Notes: generated from the letters alone by a model not told the origin. Counted from the first letter of the stretch, positions 10,083 to 34,240 are shown. The stretch is 59,958 nucleotides of DNA from Legionellaceae bacterium (GCA_965140885.1 CBCSKA010000135.1:1-59958), one strand, 5' to 3'. Numbers and translations: made by a program.

Positions 10083-10979
10083 TCATGATATAAGGTTGGT
10101 TTTGAATTGAGCTAAAATACCCGCAAATTCATCCGTAGTATTATAATGGATAGTCAATTTCCCTTTACCTGTTTTCGTATGTTGAATTTTTACCAATGTG
10201 CCTAATTGCTCAGATAATTGTTGTTGTAGACTCCGAATATTAGGATCCGTTTTTTTTTCAGGTTGTGGTAAATTGGAATTTTGTAAACGTTTAACTAAAG
10301 CTTCTGTTTCCCGAACGGATAAACGTTGAGACACAATTTTTTGAGCGGCTACACGTTGATTTTGTTCTTCTAATGCTAATAATACTTTCGCATGCCCTGT
10401 TTCAATATCCCCTTGCGCTAATAAACGTTGTACATCTTCGTCTAAGTGAGTTAAGCGTAAAATATTGGTAATAGTCGTACGTGATTTCCCCACTGCTTCG
10501 GCAACTTCTTGATGTGTTAATTGAAATTCTTGTAATAAACGTTGTAATGCAAATGCTTCATCAATTGGGTTAAGATTTTCTCGTTGAATATTTTCGATTA
10601 AAGCCATGGCAATAGCCGCTTCATCAGGGACATTACGTATGATAACGGGTACTTCATTGATCCCCGCTAATTGGGCTGCGCGCCAACGTCGTTCTCCTGC
10701 AATAATTTCATATTTATCTTTTGATATAAGACGAACAACAAGTGGCTGTATAATCCCTTGACGTCGCATAGAATCAGCTAATTCTTGTAAAGCTTGCGGT
10801 TGTATGTCTCGTCGGGGTTGGTATTTCCCTGGTTGCAAAAGTTCAATAGGAATTTTACTTAACTGTTCTTCTAAAAATACTTTATTATTTTCATGAAACG
10901 TTAAAGGTTCTGTTGTTGTTTTAACCGTACTGAGTAAAAGATCTAAACTTTTTCCTAAACCGCGTTTTTTCTCTGCCAT
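10083..10979 (-). CDS. parB: Chromosome partitioning protein ParB
   Basis: 298 aa. ParB box IIAGERRWRAA, HTH region QEVAEAVGKSRTTITNILRL. Downstream of parA. Confidence 0.92.
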   Translation of the reverse strand: MAEKKRGLGKSLDLLLSTVKTTTEPLTFHENNKVFLEEQLSKIPIELLQPGKYQPRRDIQPQALQELADSMRRQGIIQPLVVRLISKDKYEIIAGERRWRAAQLAGINEVPVIIRNVPDEAAIAMALIENIQRENLNPIDEAFALQRLLQEFQLTHQEVAEAVGKSRTTITNILRLTHLDEDVQRLLAQGDIETGHAKVLLALEEQNQRVAAQKIVSQRLSVRETEALVKRLQNSNLPQPEKKTDPNIRSLQQQLSEQLGTLVKIQHTKTGKGKLTIHYNTTDEFAGILAQFKTNLIS

Positions 10980-10988
10980 ATATTCACC

Positions 10989-11831
10989 TCACGAAGTTTC
11001 AACTTGTCTTTGCTTAAGCAGAGAAGAAGGTTGATCCCTGTTGTTTTGCTTTTCCAGGGTTGGATTTTGTGTTTCTGCTCGATTTAACATTTCATTCGCT
11101 AGTGTCAGATATGCAATAGCTCCAGAAGAGCTTTTATCGTAGAGTAAGGCTGGTAAACCAAAGCTAGGCGCTTCTGCTAACCGAACATTACGAGGTATTG
11201 ATGAATTATAAAGTATATCTTTGAAATGAATCTGTAATTGTTCCGAGACTTGAGCTGTTAAACTAGTGCGCGCATCATACATCGTTCGAACAATTCCTTC
11301 AATTTTTAATTGTGGATTAACACTTTCACTCAATTTATGAATGGTATTCATTAATGCGGTTAAACCTTCTAACGCATAATATTCGCATTGTATTGGTATA
11401 ATCACAGAATTTGCTGCAACTAATGCATTAATAGTGAGCATATTTAAGGAAGGAGGACAATCTATAAGTATATAATCATAAGATGCGTTTATCTCAGCCA
11501 ATGCATTTTTTAAACGATTTTCTCGTTCATCCAATTGTGTAAGGCTTATTTCAGCATAAGTTAAATCCCCATTGGCAGGTAATAAATCAAAACCAATAGG
11601 CAAAATGACAATCGCATTACTAACATGGATTTCATTTAATAAGACATCATTAATCGTTTGTTCCAGTATATGTTTTTCTAAACCACAACCTACTGTGGCA
11701 TTTCCTTGTGGATCAAGATCAATTAATAAAACCCGTTTTTTTAAAGAAGCAATGGAAGCGGCTAAATTAACGGAAGTCGTCGTTTTACCTACGCCGCCTT
11801 TTTGATTCGCTATAGCGATAATTTTACTCAT
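10989..11831 (-). CDS. parA: Chromosome partitioning ATPase ParA/Soj
   Basis: 280 aa. Deviant Walker A NQKGGVGKTT. 4-nt overlap with rsmG. Confidence 0.92.
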   Translation of the reverse strand: MSKIIAIANQKGGVGKTTTSVNLAASIASLKKRVLLIDLDPQGNATVGCGLEKHILEQTINDVLLNEIHVSNAIVILPIGFDLLPANGDLTYAEISLTQLDERENRLKNALAEINASYDYILIDCPPSLNMLTINALVAANSVIIPIQCEYYALEGLTALMNTIHKLSESVNPQLKIEGIVRTMYDARTSLTAQVSEQLQIHFKDILYNSSIPRNVRLAEAPSFGLPALLYDKSSSGAIAYLTLANEMLNRAETQNPTLEKQNNRDQPSSLLKQRQVETS

Positions 11832-12466
11832 GAATTTTGGCTCATTTTAATACAGATTAAATGACGTTTCGCCGTTAAACCAGGAATTACTAATGTATGA
11901 CAAGCAATAATTTGATAGGGTAGTATGATGTGTTGCATTTCTTCTTCTGGATAAATACCTTTCATTGCTAAAAATTGTCCTTCAGGAGCTAATAAATGTT
12001 TTGTGTATTCAATCATATCATGGATAGTAGCAAAAGCTCTGGAAATAATAGAATCAAAGCCCGATGACTCTTGATGTATTTCAGCACGAGAATGAATAAT
12101 CGTTATATTGGATAACCCTAAAAATTGTTTAGCTTGCACTAAAAAACGTATTTTTTTATTATTACTATCCATAAGGGTGAATTTTTTTTCAGGAAATAAA
12201 ATAGCAAGGGGAATACCTGGTAAACCAGCTCCTGTCCCTACATCTAAAATAGTATCACCATGTATATAGGGTGCAATAGATAAACTATCAAGCAAGTGTT
12301 TTATAACCATCTCTTCTTTATTACGAATAGCGGTTAAATTATAAACTTTATTCCATTTTTCTAATAGATTCAGAAATTGAAATAAAGCGTTAGTTTGGTC
12401 TTCAGTGATAGGAAAATTTAATTTTGGTAATAGTTGGTTTAACAAATTCAATATAGGATTTTTCAT
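11828..12466 (-). CDS. rsmG: 16S rRNA (guanine527-N7)-methyltransferase RsmG (GidB)
   Basis: 212 aa. SAM motif LDVGTGAGLPGIPLAI. rsmG-parA-parB order. Confidence 0.9.
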   Translation of the reverse strand: MKNPILNLLNQLLPKLNFPITEDQTNALFQFLNLLEKWNKVYNLTAIRNKEEMVIKHLLDSLSIAPYIHGDTILDVGTGAGLPGIPLAILFPEKKFTLMDSNNKKIRFLVQAKQFLGLSNITIIHSRAEIHQESSGFDSIISRAFATIHDMIEYTKHLLAPEGQFLAMKGIYPEEEMQHIILPYQIIACHTLVIPGLTAKRHLICIKMSQNS

Positions 12467-13470: not shown

Positions 13471-13742
13471 TTCACCCGCTGTCGGCCAAGGAAGCGATGA
13501 AGGAGCGAGGCCGATAGTCCCTGGTAGACCGTAGTGCCGGATGTTTTGCCGAAGGCAAAATATAAGGCCCACAAAACGGTCGACAAGTCATTTGTGGAAG
13601 TGAAGTTATGACACCTAGTCGTGTCATAACGAGCGTACGCAGGACGGCCAGGGCTGCCGCAGGCATACTTGTCGACAATTTTTGTCCCTTTTGGGGACTT
13701 GGATGTCCCAAAAGGGGTCTCAAAAATGGCGACACTATCGTA
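13471..13742. repeat. 272-bp G+C-rich helix-dense element, copy A (candidate structured ncRNA or non-autonomous mobile element)
   Basis: Near-identical to 33969-34240 (7 substitutions, no indels, same orientation; manual alignment). Many hand-verified complementary segments (see findings). G-T appositions favour + strand RNA weakly. Confidence 0.85.
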
Positions 13743-13794: not shown

Positions 13795-14940
13795 ATGAAA
13801 GAAACGTCTAACAGTATAAATCCAACAAAAAATGTTATTTTAATGCTTGGTATCGATAAAACAACACATAATTCTGCTATTGGTATAGCTACGAAATTAA
13901 AAGAAAAAAATGGTAAAGAGTATGAAATAAGATTGCTTAAAGAAAACTGTTTAAATGGATTAAAAAAAGAAGATATTAGTGAAATTACTCTTGTTGGGCA
14001 TACGGATGAAAAGCAAGATAAAACGAATTCTGTTATGAAAAAAACTTATGGGAAAAATAATGATCGGGAAATAACTGATAATGATCAAAAAGCCGAAAAA
14101 GGTTTTAATGCAAAAGAATTTGTGAATTACTTTGATACTCAAGTTAGTAACGCTAATTTTGATAAAAAAGATATTAAAGTTTTACGTTGTTTTGGTTGCG
14201 AACTCGGTTTCGTTGATTTATTTCATGGGAATACTGTACCACTTGCGCAAGAATTAGTTAATGAATTTGTATTGAAAGACTATGATTTAAAATTATATGC
14301 TTTTGCTTTTGATAATAACCATGGAGAAAATATACAAGCACTACGTTTAGTTATTGCTGAAGATGGTAAGGCTGAATATTATGGCTTCGCACAAAAAAAT
14401 AAAAATATAATGAATATGGAATCAAGAATAGCAGATACAAAAGATGAGATTGAAAAAATAAAAACAAAAATAAAAGAAGTTGAAATAAATGATCCCTTTC
14501 GCCTAAAACACGGATTTTCTTATTTATTACCAAAATTAACGACTAAAATTGTCAAAGAAGAAAAATTAAAGAATTTATGTGGTTTTAATATAGAGTTAAG
14601 AGAAAAAGAAAAAGAATTGAAAAAAAAAGATAAAGAATATAATGATTTAAAAATTGTATTATTTAAGTATGGTGGAAATCCTATAGAGTTGATTGATGAA
14701 GAAAAAAATTGTTTTAAAGCAGAAACAAAAGGCAATACAATAGATTATCCTGAAAAAAAAATAGATGAAAAAATAATTAATTCTGACGAAAATATTCCTA
14801 AAGTAATTCCAATACAGGAAGATAAAGAATGTAGAAATAGTAAGCGTTATTCTTCTATGGAATCTTTGTTTAATAATAAAGCGATTAATGAAAAAAATAA
14901 TACAGAAAACGAAGCGATATTTAAAAATAATATGAAATAA
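13795..14940 (+). CDS. Hypothetical protein: N-terminal alpha/beta domain with His/Cys dyad pattern plus K/E/N-rich coiled C-terminus
   Basis: 381-aa ORF. aaagggaaattttATG provides a purine-rich RBS. ITLVGH(69)T and VLRCFGC(135)ELG each follow a hydrophobic strand. The C-terminal half is low-complexity K/E/N. Confidence 0.6.
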   Translation: MKETSNSINPTKNVILMLGIDKTTHNSAIGIATKLKEKNGKEYEIRLLKENCLNGLKKEDISEITLVGHTDEKQDKTNSVMKKTYGKNNDREITDNDQKAEKGFNAKEFVNYFDTQVSNANFDKKDIKVLRCFGCELGFVDLFHGNTVPLAQELVNEFVLKDYDLKLYAFAFDNNHGENIQALRLVIAEDGKAEYYGFAQKNKNIMNMESRIADTKDEIEKIKTKIKEVEINDPFRLKHGFSYLLPKLTTKIVKEEKLKNLCGFNIELREKEKELKKKDKEYNDLKIVLFKYGGNPIELIDEEKNCFKAETKGNTIDYPEKKIDEKIINSDENIPKVIPIQEDKECRNSKRYSSMESLFNNKAINEKNNTENEAIFKNNMK

Positions 14941-15223: not shown

Positions 15224-16264
15224 ATGGTTATGTCAGAAATCAGCCAACGCGCACAAGAATTATTAAAAAAATTAATCGAACGTTATATTCGTGAAGGGCA
15301 GCCTATTAGTTCAAAGGTGTTAGCTGAAGATTTTTCGCAACCCATTAGTTCTGCAACTATCCGAAATATAATGGCTGATTTAGAAGCACAAGGATATATT
15401 CATTCACCGCATACTTCCGCAGGAAGAATCCCTACGCCTTTAGGTTATCGTTTTTTTGTTGATAGCTTATTAACAATCAAACCCTTAAATGATTCCGAGA
15501 TTAAGCAAGTTGAGTATGAATTAAAACCAGAATCATCGATACAATCTTTGGTAACAACCGCATCTTCTTGTTTATCAGCATTAAGTTCTTTAGCGGGCGT
15601 AGTGACTTTTCCTAAACGTAAATCATTAACATTAAGTCAAGTCGAATTTTTGCCTTTATCCGATAATCGAATTTTAGTTATTTTAGTGCTTAATAAAAAT
15701 GAAATACAAAATAGGGTTATTCATGTTGATACCCATTTTGCACCCGATCTTCTTCAAGAAGCGGCTAATTTTTTAAATAAAGAATATGTTGGTAAAGATT
15801 TAGAGCAAATACAAAAAGATTTAATTTTTTCTTTAGATAAAGTACGTGATCAAATTAGTATTATGATGCGTAAATTTATGGAAGCCATTGATAATCCAAC
15901 AGAACAACAAGAACATAGAGATGATTATGTTTTAATGGGACAAGCTCGATTATTAGATCCTGCATTTGAAAAAGGACTTGAAAGTTTACGGCAACTTTAT
16001 GATGCCTTTAGTGAGAAACGAGGTATTTTACATTTATTGGATAAAACACTCATTACTGATGGGGTTCAAATTTATATTGGTGCAGAATCAGGTTTAGATT
16101 TTTTAATGGATTATAGTGTTATTACTGCTCCTTATTCCGTGGGGGATCGAATTGTTGGAACATTGGGTGTTTTAGGACCGACAAGAATGGCTTATGATAA
16201 AGTTATTCCCATCGTTGATATGACGGCAAAATTATTGAGTGCTGCTTTGAATAAATGTTTTTAA
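15224..16264 (+). CDS. hrcA: Heat-inducible transcription repressor HrcA
   Basis: 346 aa. N-terminal winged-helix region (RAQELLKKLIERYIREGQPISSKVLAE) and C-terminal GTLGVLGPTRMAYDKVIPIVD are typical of HrcA. Upstream of grpE-dnaK-dnaJ. Confidence 0.9.
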   Translation: MVMSEISQRAQELLKKLIERYIREGQPISSKVLAEDFSQPISSATIRNIMADLEAQGYIHSPHTSAGRIPTPLGYRFFVDSLLTIKPLNDSEIKQVEYELKPESSIQSLVTTASSCLSALSSLAGVVTFPKRKSLTLSQVEFLPLSDNRILVILVLNKNEIQNRVIHVDTHFAPDLLQEAANFLNKEYVGKDLEQIQKDLIFSLDKVRDQISIMMRKFMEAIDNPTEQQEHRDDYVLMGQARLLDPAFEKGLESLRQLYDAFSEKRGILHLLDKTLITDGVQIYIGAESGLDFLMDYSVITAPYSVGDRIVGTLGVLGPTRMAYDKVIPIVDMTAKLLSAALNKCF

Positions 16265-16424
16265 ATGAAGAAATTGGAAGTATAGCTTTGATTATAATCA
16301 GTGAATCAATGTATAAGGATAGGGATTAGTAGGATTTTTTTATTTATTGAGCCTTTTTACGTTATTAATTGTTTCTACAAATTTTCAGCATAAATTAAAA
16401 AAATAAGATTTTTTTAAAATTATT

Positions 16425-16452
16425 CTTGAATTAAATAAAATCATCCCTATAT
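16425..16452 (+). promoter_or_regulatory. Sigma-32 (RpoH)-type heat-shock promoter upstream of grpE
   Basis: CTTGAA (16425-16430), 14-nt spacer, CCCTATAT (16445-16452), versus the consensus CTTGAA-N13-15-CCCCATNT. About 44 nt upstream of the grpE ATG. Confidence 0.65.
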
Positions 16453-16495
16453 AGGAAATAAGTTAAATACCTAATGAACAGTGGAGATATATGTA

Positions 16496-17095
16496 ATGGG
16501 TAATAAAGAAGATGTGTCAGTAAAACCAAGTGAAAATGTGGCGGATAAATGGGAAAAAGTGGAAAAAATGAGTGAAGACGAATCTCATCAAAAAACACAA
16601 ACCAATGATACCGTTGAAGCAATTGAGACACCTTCACATGAAGAGTTAATTGCGAAAATCAATGAACTTGAAGTTAATCAAGAAAAAATGGTGCGATTAT
16701 TAGCAGAAAAAGAAAATCTTATACGGCGTAACTATACAGAGTTAGAAAAAAATAATAAGTATGCTGTATCAAAATTATCGCAAGAATTATTAAGTGTGTT
16801 GGATAGCTTAGAGTTAAGTTTACAAGCGGCACCAAAAGATAATGACGTATTAAAATCATTTTATGATGGCATTGATATGACATTTAAAATGTTATTAGGC
16901 ATTTTAGAAAAACAAGGAATTCAATTAGTTAATCCATTAAATCAAAAATTTGATCCTAATTTTCATGAAGCGATTTCTATGCAACCCAGTAATGAAGTGC
17001 CTGATGGGCATATACTGAAGGTATTACAAAAAGGATATGTCCTTCATGATCGCTTAATTCGTCCAGCAATGGTGATTATCGCCAAAGCGTCATAA
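16496..17095 (+). CDS. grpE: Nucleotide exchange factor GrpE
   Basis: The ORF opens at GTG 16481. The ATG at 16496 follows ggagat. The C-terminal GYVLHDRLIRPAMVIIAK is GrpE-typical. Confidence 0.9.
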   Translation: MGNKEDVSVKPSENVADKWEKVEKMSEDESHQKTQTNDTVEAIETPSHEELIAKINELEVNQEKMVRLLAEKENLIRRNYTELEKNNKYAVSKLSQELLSVLDSLELSLQAAPKDNDVLKSFYDGIDMTFKMLLGILEKQGIQLVNPLNQKFDPNFHEAISMQPSNEVPDGHILKVLQKGYVLHDRLIRPAMVIIAKAS

Positions 17096-17191
17096 TTTTT
17101 TATACATTTTTTAGAGGATTCTTCTTGAAAAATGTAAAACTAACATTAGTAGTAAATTTAATTAATGATTTCGATAACGGGAGAGAATAAA

Positions 17192-19117
17192 ATGGCAAAT
17201 GTAATTATTGGTATTGATTTAGGAACAACAAATTCCTGTGTAGCCATAATGGAAAATGGTAAAACGAAAGTTATAGAAAATAGTGAAGGAAAACGAACAA
17301 CTCCTTCAGTGGTTGCTTATCCTGATGATGATTCTGATCACATTGAAGTGGGTGATGTTGCTAAACGACAAGCAGTGACACGCCCTAAACACGTACTTCA
17401 TGCAATTAAGCGGTTGATTGGACGTAAATTTGATGATCAAATTGTACAGCGTGATATCAAAATGGTTCCTTATGAAATTATGAAAGCTAAAAATGGGGAT
17501 GCCTGGGTAAGAGTTGGAAATCGAGAATTAGCGCCTCCTCAAGTTTCTGCACAAATTTTAATGAAAATGAAAAAGACAGCAGAAGATTATTTAGGATATC
17601 CTGTGAGTGAAGCTGTTATTACAGTGCCGGCTTATTTTAATGATTCACAACGTCAAGCAACCAAAGATGCTGGACGCATTGCTGGATTAGAAGTAAAGCG
17701 AATTATTAATGAACCCACTGCCGCTGCTTTAGCGTATGGTTTAGATAAGCAAAAAGGGGATTCCGTTATTGCTGTATATGATTTAGGTGGCGGTACTTTT
17801 GACGTTTCTATTATTGAAATAGCCGAAGTGGATGGAGAACATCAATTTGAAGTATTAGCGACTAATGGTGATACTTTCCTTGGTGGTGAAGATTTTGATT
17901 TACGTATTATTAATTATTTTACTGATGAATTTAAAAAAGATACCGGTATTGATTTACATCATGATCCGCTTGCATTACAGCGTCTAAGAGAAGCGGCTGA
18001 ACGAGCGAAAATTGAATTATCTTCAGCACAACAAACGGATATTAATTTACCTTATATTACGGCTGATGCAACAGGACCTAAACATTTAAATGTGAAATTA
18101 ACGCGTGCCAAATTAGAATCTTTAGTGGAAGATTTAATTTCTCGTACGATTGAACCTTGTCGTACAGCGTTAAAAGATGCAGGCTTAAAAGTATCTGATA
18201 TTAAAGAAGTGATTTTAGTCGGTGGCCAAATACGTATGCCAAAAGTACAAGAAGCTGTACGCGATTTCTTTGGCAAAGAACCACGTAAGGATGTAAATCC
18301 TGATGAAGCAGTAGCGGTTGGTGCTGCTATTCAAGGTGGTGTATTATCTGGTGAAGTAAAAGATATTTTATTATTAGATGTAACACCACTTTCATTAGGT
18401 ATTGAAACAATGGGTGGCGTAATGACTAAATTAATAGAAAAAAATACGACTATTCCTACAAAAGCAAGCCAAACTTTTACGACAGCCGATGATAACCAAA
18501 CCGCGGTAACTGTACATGTTTTACAAGGTGAGCGTGAAATGGCTTCTGCTAATAAATCATTAGGTCGTTTTGATTTAGCAGAAATTCCAACTGCTCCTCG
18601 CGGAACACCACAAATTGAAGTCACATTTGATATTGATGCCAATGGTATATTACATGTATCGGCTAAGAATAAAGCTACAGGTAAAGCACAATCTATTGTT
18701 ATTAAAGCATCAAGTGGTTTATCTGATGAAGAAATTCAAAAAATGGTTAAAGATGCGGAAGCTCATGCGGAAGAAGATAAAAAATTCCATGAATTAGTTA
18801 ATGCACGTAATCAAGCGGATACTCTTATTCATGCTACGACAAAATCATTGACAGATGTGGGTGATAAATTAAGTGCGAATGATAAAGAAGCTATTGAATC
18901 TGCCATTGCTGTCCTTAAAGAAGCTGTAAAAGGTGATGATAAGTCTGAAATTGAAGCAAAAACGAATGATTTATCAACTGCATCAGCTAAAATTTATGAA
19001 TTATTACAAGCGCAAAATCAGCAAGAAAGTCCTAAAGAAGATACACAGGATTCTGCTGAAAAAGGTGATGGTAATGTCGTGGATGCAGAATTTGAAGAAG
19101 TGAAGGATAAAAAATAA
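17192..19117 (+). CDS. dnaK: Molecular chaperone DnaK (Hsp70)
   Basis: The ATG at 17192 follows gggagag. [24 protein letters not shown] and [10 protein letters not shown] are Hsp70 signatures. Confidence 0.98.
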
Positions 19118-19141
19118 GCAACTTTAAAGGATAATGAAGAA

Positions 19142-19178
19142 AAACCCAAAGAGAAATTTTTTTCTCTTTGGGTTTCTT
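19142..19178 (+). terminator. Rho-independent terminator after dnaK
   Basis: aaacccaaagagaaa-ttttt-ttctctttgggttt followed by a T-rich tail. Confidence 0.8.
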
Positions 19179-19307
19179 TCTGATTTCTTTCTTTAGTCTA
19201 CTTGAAAATTTTTATTTAATTTTCCAAACACACCCCTGATAATATTTGGGAAAAAAACTTAGCATCGGGGAAGCTACAGATACGTAAAATTAGGTGGCAT
19301 ATCAACA

Positions 19308-20432
19308 ATGGCGAAAAAAGATTATTATGAACTATTAGGTATTTCTAAAGGTGCATCAGCGGATGAAATAAAAAAAGCATTTCGTAAATTGGCAATGAAA
19401 TATCATCCGGATAGAAATCCTAATGATAAAAATACAGAAGAAAAATTCAAGGAAGTTAAAGAAGCGTACGATATTTTATCTGATGAACAAAAACGTGCGG
19501 CTTATGATCAATTTGGTCATGCTGGTGTAGATGGTGGAATGGGTGCTGGTGGTACTGGCCATGCTAATTTTAGTGATATCTTTGGCGATATTTTTGGTGA
19601 TATTTTTGGTGGAAATCAAGGAGGCGGTGGACGAACTTATGCTCAACGGGGAGCAGATTTACGTTATCCCTTAGACTTAACATTAGAAGAAGCCGTTCAT
19701 GGAACAACGACACAAATACGTATTCCAACGTTAGTTGAATGTAATGATTGTGATGGAACAGGTGCTAAAAAAGGAACCAAGCCTGTTACTTGTAAAGATT
19801 GCGATGGAAAAGGCCAAATTCGCATACAACAAGGCTTTTTCTCTATTCAACAAACGTGTCCCTCTTGTCATGGGCAAGGTAAAGTGATTACTTCACCTTG
19901 TAATACGTGCTATGGACATGGACGAGTACAGCAAAGCAAAACACTTTCGGTTAAAGTCCCTGCCGGTGTTGACACAGGTGATAGAATACGCTTAAGTGGT
20001 GAAGGAGAAGCGGGTGCTCATGGAGGTCCTAAAGGGGATCTTTATGTGGAAGTGAGAATTAAACCACATCCTATTTTCACAAGAGAGCATGCTAATTTAA
20101 TCTGTGAAATGCCTATTAGCTTAGCCGCCGCTGCTTTAGGTGGTGAAATTAGTGTGCCTACATTGGATGGTCAAGTTTTATTAAAAATCCCATCCGAAAC
20201 ACAAAGTGGTAAATCTTTCCGATTAAGAGGAAAGGGAATTAAATCTATACGTGGTGGTGTTTCAGGCGATTTGATTTGCCAGGTTTATGTTGAAACCCCT
20301 ATCAATTTAACGTCTGAGCAAAAAGAATTATTGAAAAGTTTTGATCAATCGATTAAAAATTCAACAAAGAAACATTCTCCTAAAAGCAGTTCTTGGTTCG
20401 ATGCAGTAAAGAATTTTTTTGATAAATTATAA
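19308..20432 (+). CDS. dnaJ: Co-chaperone DnaJ
   Basis: J-domain HPD (KYHPDRN), G/F region ([13 protein letters not shown]), and four CxxCxGxG zinc repeats. Confidence 0.97.
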
Positions 20433-33968: not shown

Positions 33969-34240
33969 TTCATTCGCTGTCGGCCAAGGAAGCGACGAAG
34001 GAGCGAGGCCGATAGTCCCTGGTAGACCGTAGTACCGGATGTTTTGCCGAAGGCAAAATATAAGGTCCACAACACGGTCGACAAGTCATTTGTGGAAGTG
34101 AAGTTATGACACCTAGTCGTGTCATAACGAGCGTACGCAGGACGGCCAGGGCTGCCGCAGGCATACTTGTCGACAATTTTTGTCCCTTTTGGGGACTTGG
34201 ATGTCCCAAAAGGGGCCTCAAAAATGGCGACACTATCGTA
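33969..34240. repeat. 272-bp G+C-rich helix-dense element, copy B
   Basis: Same orientation as 13471-13742, with 7 substitutions and no indels. Intergenic: 118 nt after the activator stop and 156 nt before the mutT start. Confidence 0.85.

Follow-up and report, generated by a model that had tools for sequence, protein, structure and literature searches.

What is a sequence that stands twice, almost unchanged, in unrelated surroundings of one bacterial genome, and how did it get there? The question is raised by a stretch of 59,958 nucleotides (nt) from a Legionellaceae bacterium (GCA_965140885.1 CBCSKA010000135.1:1-59958; hereafter the window, meaning this stretch at its full length), in which a single long direct repeat, 13471-13742 versus 33969-34240, comprises two copies, A and B, that are 97% identical over 272 nt and lie on the same strand with a spacing of 20498 bp. 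Here we report that both copies are members of an undescribed family of ~260-300-nt non-coding elements with a conserved complex fold. The narrow claim, that of a family of non-coding, structured, mobile elements inserting without target duplication, is made with very high confidence. As for the mechanism, our preferred reading, to which we give a probability of about 0.5, is that of a non-autonomous element resembling palindrome-associated transposable elements (PATEs), which would be moved in trans by an HUH nuclease through single-stranded DNA (ssDNA) and would probably also act as a functional RNA.

Since the remaining direct repeats in the window reach at most 44 nt at 67-80% identity, and since both copies are G+C islands (44-45% each, in a window of mostly 25-40%), the repeat is not a product of chance. 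In a MAFFT pair alignment, copies A and B differ by seven substitutions and no insertion or deletion, at the same positions and with the same offset of 20498 as given in a first-pass annotation of this DNA, and their similarity ends abruptly on both sides. That annotation had drawn the element too wide. With ends set by comparison across the family and by empty and filled sites, and then transferred to the window, the six 5' bases TTCAYY and the two 3' bases TA of the repeat turn out to be flank. The corrected features, together with the reading frame discussed below, are:

13477-13740, + strand: copy A of the element, 264 nt, with five substitutions relative to copy B within the element (pair alignment, nhmmer)
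33975-34238, + strand: copy B of the element, 264 nt, CGCTG...GGCGACACTATCG (family alignment, empty/filled pairs; nhmmer E=5e-81)
13473-13476, + strand: target-site tetranucleotide CACC of copy A, with C at position -4; flank
33971-33974, + strand: target-site tetranucleotide CATT of copy B, with C at position -4, the commonest tetranucleotide in the family; flank
33970-34233, - strand: spurious open reading frame (ORF) of 87 aa, not a gene

The change cc>tt at 13475-76 thus falls in the target site, outside the element, and five substitutions separate the two copies within it.

Two copies of one orientation 20 kb apart, with 87 codons open in both, might suggest a segmental duplication or a small protein-coding gene; the data refute both. 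The identity stops exactly at the element ends, and an element known only from two copies inside a recent duplication is contradicted by hundreds of copies at unrelated sites in other genomes. The minus-strand ORF noted earlier is indeed open in both copies, and its G87E change lies in the target site, outside the element. Its only matches were 17 distinct hypothetical proteins (79-279 aa, the length varying with the flank) on at least 14 contigs of the same metagenome-assembled genome (MAG; LEGION0398), which therefore holds at least 17 copies of the element. Relative to the window copy, the reading frame is shifted 6-12 times in each other subfamily, and neither the strand nor the frame of the longest open stretch is constant. 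The earlier view that the conservation is structural rather than coding was borne out, as the fold is kept in 24 relatives and the reading frame is not.

In blastn searches, plasmids of Legionella antarctica, Methylobacter sp. YRD-M1 and Ca. Methylocalor proved to carry diverged relatives at 70-78% identity, and phages gave no relative. A degenerate pattern derived from a four-taxon alignment, applied to a collection with one genome per species, found at least 109 loci. Among the matches listed, most belong to the methanotrophic gill symbionts of Bathymodiolus japonicus and B. platifrons, and further hosts are Methylobacter, Methylovulum, Methylicorpusculum, Methyloglobulus, Legionella drancourtii, an uncultured Legionella and uncultured Gammaproteobacteria. 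An nhmmer profile run on those loci gave 229 matches, 133 of them full length, with well over 100 full copies in the Bathymodiolus methanotrophic symbionts. A narrower pattern added 30 loci in metagenomes, and a related pattern without the 3' GCGAC anchor added nine in viral contigs, at least two of which (L118, L119) had no nhmmer match. The element measures 264 nt in the window and 224-300 nt in relatives, and a GC-rich subfamily has the 5' end GAAGGAGCAC in place of CGCTG. Six diverse members gave no match in Rfam 15 at the gathering threshold, nor at E<=1-10 (E<=10 for the window copy, E<=1 for four other members). [quoted passage not shown]

The fold was predicted on both strands, copy B reaching -110.3 kcal/mol on the + strand (z=-5.4) and -99.0 kcal/mol on the - strand (z=-4.9). 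A consensus structure, calculated with RNAalifold from 24 diverse aligned members (mean column identity 67%), contains 43 pairs in eight helices. The predicted helices, in window coordinates of copy B, are:

33977-34015, + strand: P1, the 5' hairpin CUGUCGGCC / GGCCGAUAG, whose purine-rich loop holds GGA (minimum-free-energy fold)
34015-34152, + strand: P2, a long-range helix of 34015-34022 with 34146-34152 that closes the domain of P3, P4 and P5 (consensus helix 1)
34025-34079, + strand: P3, 34025-34030 with 34075-34079 (helix 2; 95% of alignment cells pair, double changes in 3 pairs)
34034-34066, + strand: P4 hairpin (helix 3; 98.1% of cells pair, double changes in 6 pairs)
34103-34128, + strand: P5 hairpin GUUAUGACAC / GUGUCAUAAC (helix 4; double changes in 5 pairs)
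34154-34162, + strand: P6, mini-hairpin GCC-GCA-GGC within the most conserved stretch, GGGCNGCCGNAGGCAU (helix 5)
34169-34231, + strand: P7/P8, the long 3' subterminal hairpin, GUCGAC...GGCGAC around GUCCCUUUUGGGGAC-UUGGAUG-GUCCCAAAAGGGG (helices 6-8)

The compensatory changes for which the first-pass annotation had pointed to one instance recur across copies and species, with changes on both sides in 22 of the 43 pairs. A standard pair was found in 93.8% of the cells, compared with 81.4% in shuffled alignments (0/500 reached the observed value) and 35-45% with slid partners; the covariation score was 0.336, compared with 0.124 (again 0/500) and 0.05-0.10, respectively. These counts are to be read with the 24 sequences being related and the structure being derived from the same alignment on which the pairs were counted; the comparison with slid partners and the number of double changes lie far above what kinship alone yielded in the counting tool's own trials. 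P2 pairs in 97.6% of cells and has double changes in three pairs (e.g. AU:12, GC:11, CG:1), and P5 keeps its pairing in other subfamilies with a wholly different sequence. P6 is invariant and gives no evidence for or against its pairing. P1 was misaligned by MAFFT and left out of the formal pair count; its stem covaries across subfamilies (UCGGCC/GGCCGA, CCAGCC/GGCUGG, CAGGCC/GGCCUG, AAAAUC/GAUUUU). P7/P8, from which seven unpaired bases lead to the 3' end, is present in all subfamilies and P1 in most, the GC-rich subfamily beginning otherwise.

The differences between the two window copies agree with this fold. Positions 34034 and 34066, the closing pair of P4, form A-U in copy B and G-C in copy A, confirming the compensatory exchange proposed earlier, and t13718>c (34216 in copy B) turns a G.U into a G-C pair in P8, also as had been noted. 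The other two within-element differences, at 33996 and 34073, lie in unpaired regions, and none of the five substitutions breaks a predicted helix. Moreover, the helix cells contain 64 G.U and only ~10 A.C combinations, and two pairs are near-invariant G.U (22/24 sequences each); therefore, the + strand is the folded strand.

A GGA motif is kept in all subfamilies in the P1 loop (window 33986-34006) and in the P8 loop (34197-34202). The P8 loop sequence, ARGGAUG, is close to the CsrA/RsmA binding consensus, which we regard as a lead only. The total count of GGA is no higher than base composition predicts, by a rough estimate, and csrA paralogues are present on both L. antarctica plasmids.

How the element inserts can be read from empty and filled sites. 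In the symbionts, the conserved part of the copies starts at CGCTG and stops 7 nt past GCGAC, while the bases upstream vary. The element often lies inside multicopy insertion sequences (IS), whose paralogous copies serve as empty sites. All 591 filled/empty matches at symbiont loci showed zero shift; the target is therefore not duplicated, and the last two bases, which vary (GA/AA/GC...), belong to the element. L. antarctica offers two further pairs. On plasmid 1, the element cuts a Tn3 tnpA gene of which an uninterrupted paralogue stands elsewhere on that plasmid (flanks 100% identical, insertion point ambiguous by no more than 1 nt); on plasmid 2, it cuts the 3' end of an IS91-family gene whose plasmid 1 counterpart is whole (flanks 99.8-100% identical). 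Such near-identical flanks indicate recent insertions. These exact pairs, together with the unrelated flanks of the copies, uphold the earlier proposal of mobility rather than segmental duplication. No terminal inverted repeats were found in the element.

The target is defined on the 5' side. The base at -4 upstream of the 5' end is C in 113/115 copies and in 33 of 33 additional independent copies, taken from metagenomes and viral contigs, 12 of which belong to the GC-rich subfamily, giving 146/148 independent copies overall. C is rare at position -5, G is depleted from -3 to -1, and the downstream flank of the 115 copies has no conserved base. The commonest upstream tetranucleotides are CATT, CCTT and CAAT, usually preceded by TT, so that the consensus approximates TTC-ATT/element (here and below, the slash marks the insertion point), with the 5' end 3 nt downstream of the C. 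The short target motif suspected in the first-pass annotation is thus present 5' of the copies, although its bases had been counted there as part of the element. No hairpins of the kind that mark group IIC or IS1111 targets were found in the flanks. Among symbiont copies placed in draft 8-kb blocks, 73/125 lie on the G-rich strand (binomial p=0.07, Mann-Whitney p=0.02), a weak bias; both window copies lie on the G-rich strand.

A duplication-free insertion with asymmetric ends could also be expected of a MITE moved by a tyrosine, serine or DEDD/IS110-type site-specific recombinase via a circular intermediate, since such enzymes can insert without duplication. The last two bases vary, as coupling sequences would, and integrase, serine recombinase and IS110-family transposase genes occur in the neighbourhoods. 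However, these enzymes need a longer core (for IS110, an RNA-programmed 10-14-nt target), whereas the targets of the element are very diverse and have one conserved base, and no core is common to both junctions. A test for a guide by mutual information, run between bases of the flanks and variable bases of the element, revealed no covariation (108 tests, minimum p=0.04), and the sole IS110-family IS found treats the element as a target. We therefore consider a recombinase-driven MITE quite unlikely.

That IS110-family IS is the 1.5-kb interruption of the L075 copy, which had been a candidate partner and was rejected because it carries its own inverted ends and is inserted into the element. It encodes a 359-aa protein (DEDD_Tnp_IS110 + Transposase_20) and occupies L075 361-1839 and L158 112-1590, at an identical site, GGCGTCA/GTCATT, in an uncultured Legionella MAG and in an unrelated metagenome. 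It appears to use the element as a specific target; other IS110/IS1111 members target repeats resembling repetitive extragenic palindromic (REP) sequences.

The first-pass annotation had also advised a search for an autonomous partner (TnpA-Y1, TnpB/IscB or reverse transcriptase, RT), and none could be tied to the element. The sequence examined around the copies amounted to ~1 Mb, mostly of the B. japonicus symbiont, and a tblastn search of it with Y1, TnpB, RT, Y2 and IS110 proteins gave no recurrent match. When the loci's ORFs of 90 aa or more were all clustered, the frequent families were DDE transposases of IS4, IS630, IS3, IS6, IS30 and IS66, all of which make target duplications. The neighbouring transposases are insertion victims, not the partner. 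Both L. antarctica plasmids are fully annotated and contain no IS200/IS605, TnpB or IscB gene.

One copy, on the Methylobacter plasmid, lies 55 nt from a tnpB gene, a position that would suit an orphan omega-RNA of TnpB type, read from the + strand with a guide from the 3' flank, which had lost its nuclease gene and works with a TnpB/IscB-like nuclease elsewhere while being moved by the corresponding TnpA. The length and multi-helix fold with a long-range closing helix resemble omega-RNAs of IscB, IsrB and TnpB, the fold reaches both transposon boundaries, and the structured strand has the target motif 5' of the element, which is the geometry of TnpB omega-RNAs. Nevertheless, this tnpB was rejected as a partner because it is encoded on the other strand and comes with a canonical 3' omega-RNA and right end (RE) of its own, and because it is a common plasmid TnpB whose relatives occur in hundreds of plasmids without the element, the homology stopping at the ORF. 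No second TnpB was found in the ~1 Mb around the copies, and neither HEARO nor any other Rfam family matched in the six-member search. In addition, a usable target-adjacent motif (TAM) would need more than one conserved base, and the long-range helix spans the whole element and leaves no room for a former nested nuclease ORF. An orphan omega-RNA is thus unlikely. A possible TnpB C-terminus remnant in a + frame (RRTARAAAGI vs RRLAAGIP) was too weak to use.

A group II intron RT stands beside the copy of L113/L079, and group II intron RTs exist in some hosts. Since the element resembles introns in being a single compact fold, backed by covariation, whose ends are exact and whose insertion makes no duplication, it might be a retro-mobile or self-splicing RNA, that is, an unrecognised intron or ribozyme reverse-spliced or reverse-transcribed into its sites. 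We consider this very improbable: no Rfam intron matched, GUGYG and domain V are lacking, and neither a U at -1 nor a terminal G is present. The insertions into genes are antisense and truncating (Tn3 tnpA, the IS91-like gene, the group II intron), and near-identical copies stand in unrelated targets, so that exon-binding specificity is lacking. Neither poly-A tails nor a systematic excess of 5'-truncated copies was seen, and the incomplete copies that were inspected either stand at the edge of a locus or have other insertions in them. The RT beside the L113/L079 copy was discarded as a partner because the element splits domain D1 (RF02005) of its intron, which is contiguous across the element. 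The intron (L113 2926-5120) comprises RF02005 D1-D4, an RT/maturase ORF and RF00029 D5-D6, with domain I cut by the antisense element, and the intron-element unit together with a 287-aa ORF is present as two inverted copies on one contig.

Among HUH enzymes, an IS91-family Y2 gene is found on both L. antarctica plasmids. On p2, a pair of this gene and an integrase abuts the element and was rejected as partner, as the p1 paralogue without the element is an empty site; the IS91 unit was also rejected as the source of the element ends, which its own ends do not resemble. Relics of Y1 tnpA genes occur in the B. japonicus symbiont (L009 4221-4650, L041 3150-3503). The one just upstream of the L009 copy was dismissed because the element sits in the right end of that IS. 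Both relics are of IS200 type and degraded, being cut by IS30-like and IS4-like insertions and a small palindromic insert. An intact 146-aa Y1 relative with its ends was found in Methyloprofundus (L125 3001-3441). On a GC-rich metagenome contig (L155 3009-3989), an HNH_2 endonuclease gene runs at its 3' end into a copy of the element and looks like another gene truncated by insertion.

Among known mechanisms, the insertion signature would best fit transposition through ssDNA by an HUH enzyme, we infer. This reading, our preferred one, rests on the asymmetry of the ends, every subfamily having a subterminal hairpin at the 3' end and most having a hairpin at the 5' end too, and on the one-sided short target combined with a structure specific to the strand that has the motif 5' of the element. 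The nuclease, supplied in trans, would be of the IS200/IS605 Y1 type or, less likely, of the IS91 Y2 type; 'peel-and-paste' or rolling-circle transposition of ssDNA would insert the element without duplication, and the element itself would be a PATE-like passenger. For the IS605 superfamily, insertion leaves no duplication and takes place beside or within 4-bp sites, e.g. TCAT (N/ATGA on the other strand), and some of its families have a left end starting with CG (PMC4810608). With the target flexibility described in the literature, which covers TCAT/ (= N/ATGA), GT/GG and, for IscB/TnpB, the TAMs TTCAT and TTTAT among others, a T-rich target that contains C and is offset becomes plausible. 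Because the long-range and covarying interior helices exceed what end recognition would need, the element is probably also transcribed into a functional RNA, for example an omega-RNA-like scaffold or a protein-binding RNA.

Several observations weigh against transposition by an HUH enzyme. No cognate autonomous element was found near the copies, no Y1, Y2, TnpB, IscB or RT gene recurs in the ~1 Mb around them, and the left and right ends of the IS200-like element in these lineages have no resemblance to the ends of our element. The target has one strongly conserved base, 3 nt from the junction, whereas in the textbook IS200/IS605 case a specific motif of 4-5 nt adjoins the left end. Subfamilies do not agree in their 5'-terminal sequence (the CGCTG hairpin versus GAAGGAGCAC), which is odd for recognition by a single transposase. 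The orientation bias is weak, promoter and terminator scans of the element were uninformative, and the folded + strand may be RNA or ssDNA, the data being alike for both.

A different reading has a real minority chance: the element would be a mobile gene encoding a complex-fold RNA of a new class, the RNA itself being the functional cargo or the agent and the mechanism lying outside the known IS families. Such an RNA might serve in trans as the scaffold or guide of a nuclease or recombinase, act as a ribozyme in the excision or integration of the element, or be a protein sponge. The last option is suggested by the GGA motifs in the P1 and P8 loops and by the likeness of ARGGAUG in P8 to the CsrA-binding consensus.

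Compared with known systems, the behaviour of the element is closest to PATEs or orphan omega-RNA elements, and its structure is new. With PATEs and other non-autonomous relatives of IS200/IS605 (IS1341/IS605B, ISC), which are moved in trans by Y1 TnpA, it has in common an exact, duplication-free insertion without terminal inverted repeats, subterminal hairpins (in the element at the 3' end in all subfamilies and at the 5' end in most) and strand-specific folding, a short target rich in T and C that is confined to the 5' side (compare TTAC, TTGAT, TCAT and TTCAT), and many orphan copies, often within other repeats. Unlike PATEs, it has a single strongly conserved target base 3 nt from the junction and a 5' terminus that varies by subfamily, its 260-300 nt, in place of dispensable DNA framed by a hairpin at each end, form a single covarying fold that includes a long-range helix, and neither a cognate TnpA nor a matching autonomous IS was found. 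The omega-RNAs of IscB/IsrB (HEARO, RF02033) and TnpB are similar in size, complexity, multi-copy mobile distribution and in having a boundary at the transposon end; in contrast to them, the element has no Rfam similarity or adjacent same-strand nuclease gene, and its fold fills the whole mobile unit.

Classical MITEs (Correia/NEMIS, ERIC, RUP and BOX, and the QMITEs of Coxiella) are likewise short, non-coding, structured if transcribed and present in tens to hundreds of copies, but they have terminal inverted repeats and target duplications produced by DDE transposases. IStrons, in which a group I intron is combined with IS200/IS605 ends, also place a complex RNA fold in a duplication-free, target-specific transposon; the element differs in lacking group I features, an Rfam match and ORFs, and its insertions into genes are antisense and disruptive. 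Finally, REP sequences and REPINs, moved by RAYT, a domesticated Y1 HUH enzyme, are non-autonomous, hairpin-forming and strand-specific, and mobilisation in trans by a single-copy HUH enzyme of this kind could explain the lack of a linked transposase. REPINs, however, are paired 20-40-nt palindromes, intergenic and confined to one genome lineage, whereas the element is a 260-300-nt multi-helix unit found across orders and on plasmids.

A second family of ~320 nt, with a variant, was noticed at symbiont loci (e.g. L088 5401-5080, L040 3763-3440, L059 2040-2540). It has in common with the element the first ~65 nt (CGCTG-hairpin-TAGTCCCTGATAG) and the core GACGCAGGRCG...CAGGGC, ends in ...GGTAGCATGGCGCGCCTG and follows the same rule of C at -4; the ~320-nt family and the 264-nt element insert into one another. 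A 4.6-kb peat metagenome contig (L138) has six matches to the element from at least two subfamilies beside a plasmid Rep-like ORF, a local pile-up. In two pairs of metagenome contigs (L130/L136 and L135/L153), the left flank and the element are identical and the sequences diverge exactly at the 3' end, for which assembly switching at a repeat is the likeliest explanation and one-ended events are the alternative.

In the window, the surroundings of the two copies are unrelated, as stated earlier: copy A lies between two ORFs without a Pfam match, and copy B between a sigma-54 activator gene and a NUDIX (MutT-like) gene. One ORF in the region of copy A (381 aa, 13795-14940), rich in K, N and E, has no Pfam match. 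Copy A is near gidB-parA-parB and hrcA-grpE-dnaK-dnaJ, which lie on either side of its region (parB-parA-gidB at 10083-12466 on the - strand, hrcA-grpE-dnaK-dnaJ at 15224-20432 on the + strand). The cumulative GC skew climbs over the entire window, which therefore contains no replication switch point.

Annotators of carrier genomes should mask the spurious ORFs that the element creates (79-279 aa in the source MAG). The extent of covariation places this 260-300-nt unit on a level with large structured RNAs of bacteria, although neither Rfam 15 nor the searchable literature contains it. The element is demonstrably mobile and crosses the orders Legionellales and Methylococcales as well as chromosomes and plasmids. 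In the reduced, IS-ridden genomes of deep-sea mussel symbionts it has expanded to well over 100 full copies and disrupts transposons and genes there. The combination of an IS200/IS605-like signature, a loose offset target and no visible partner makes it a test case for the mobilisation in trans of orphan structured elements, and for whether further RNA-guided or RNA-dependent transposition systems exist.

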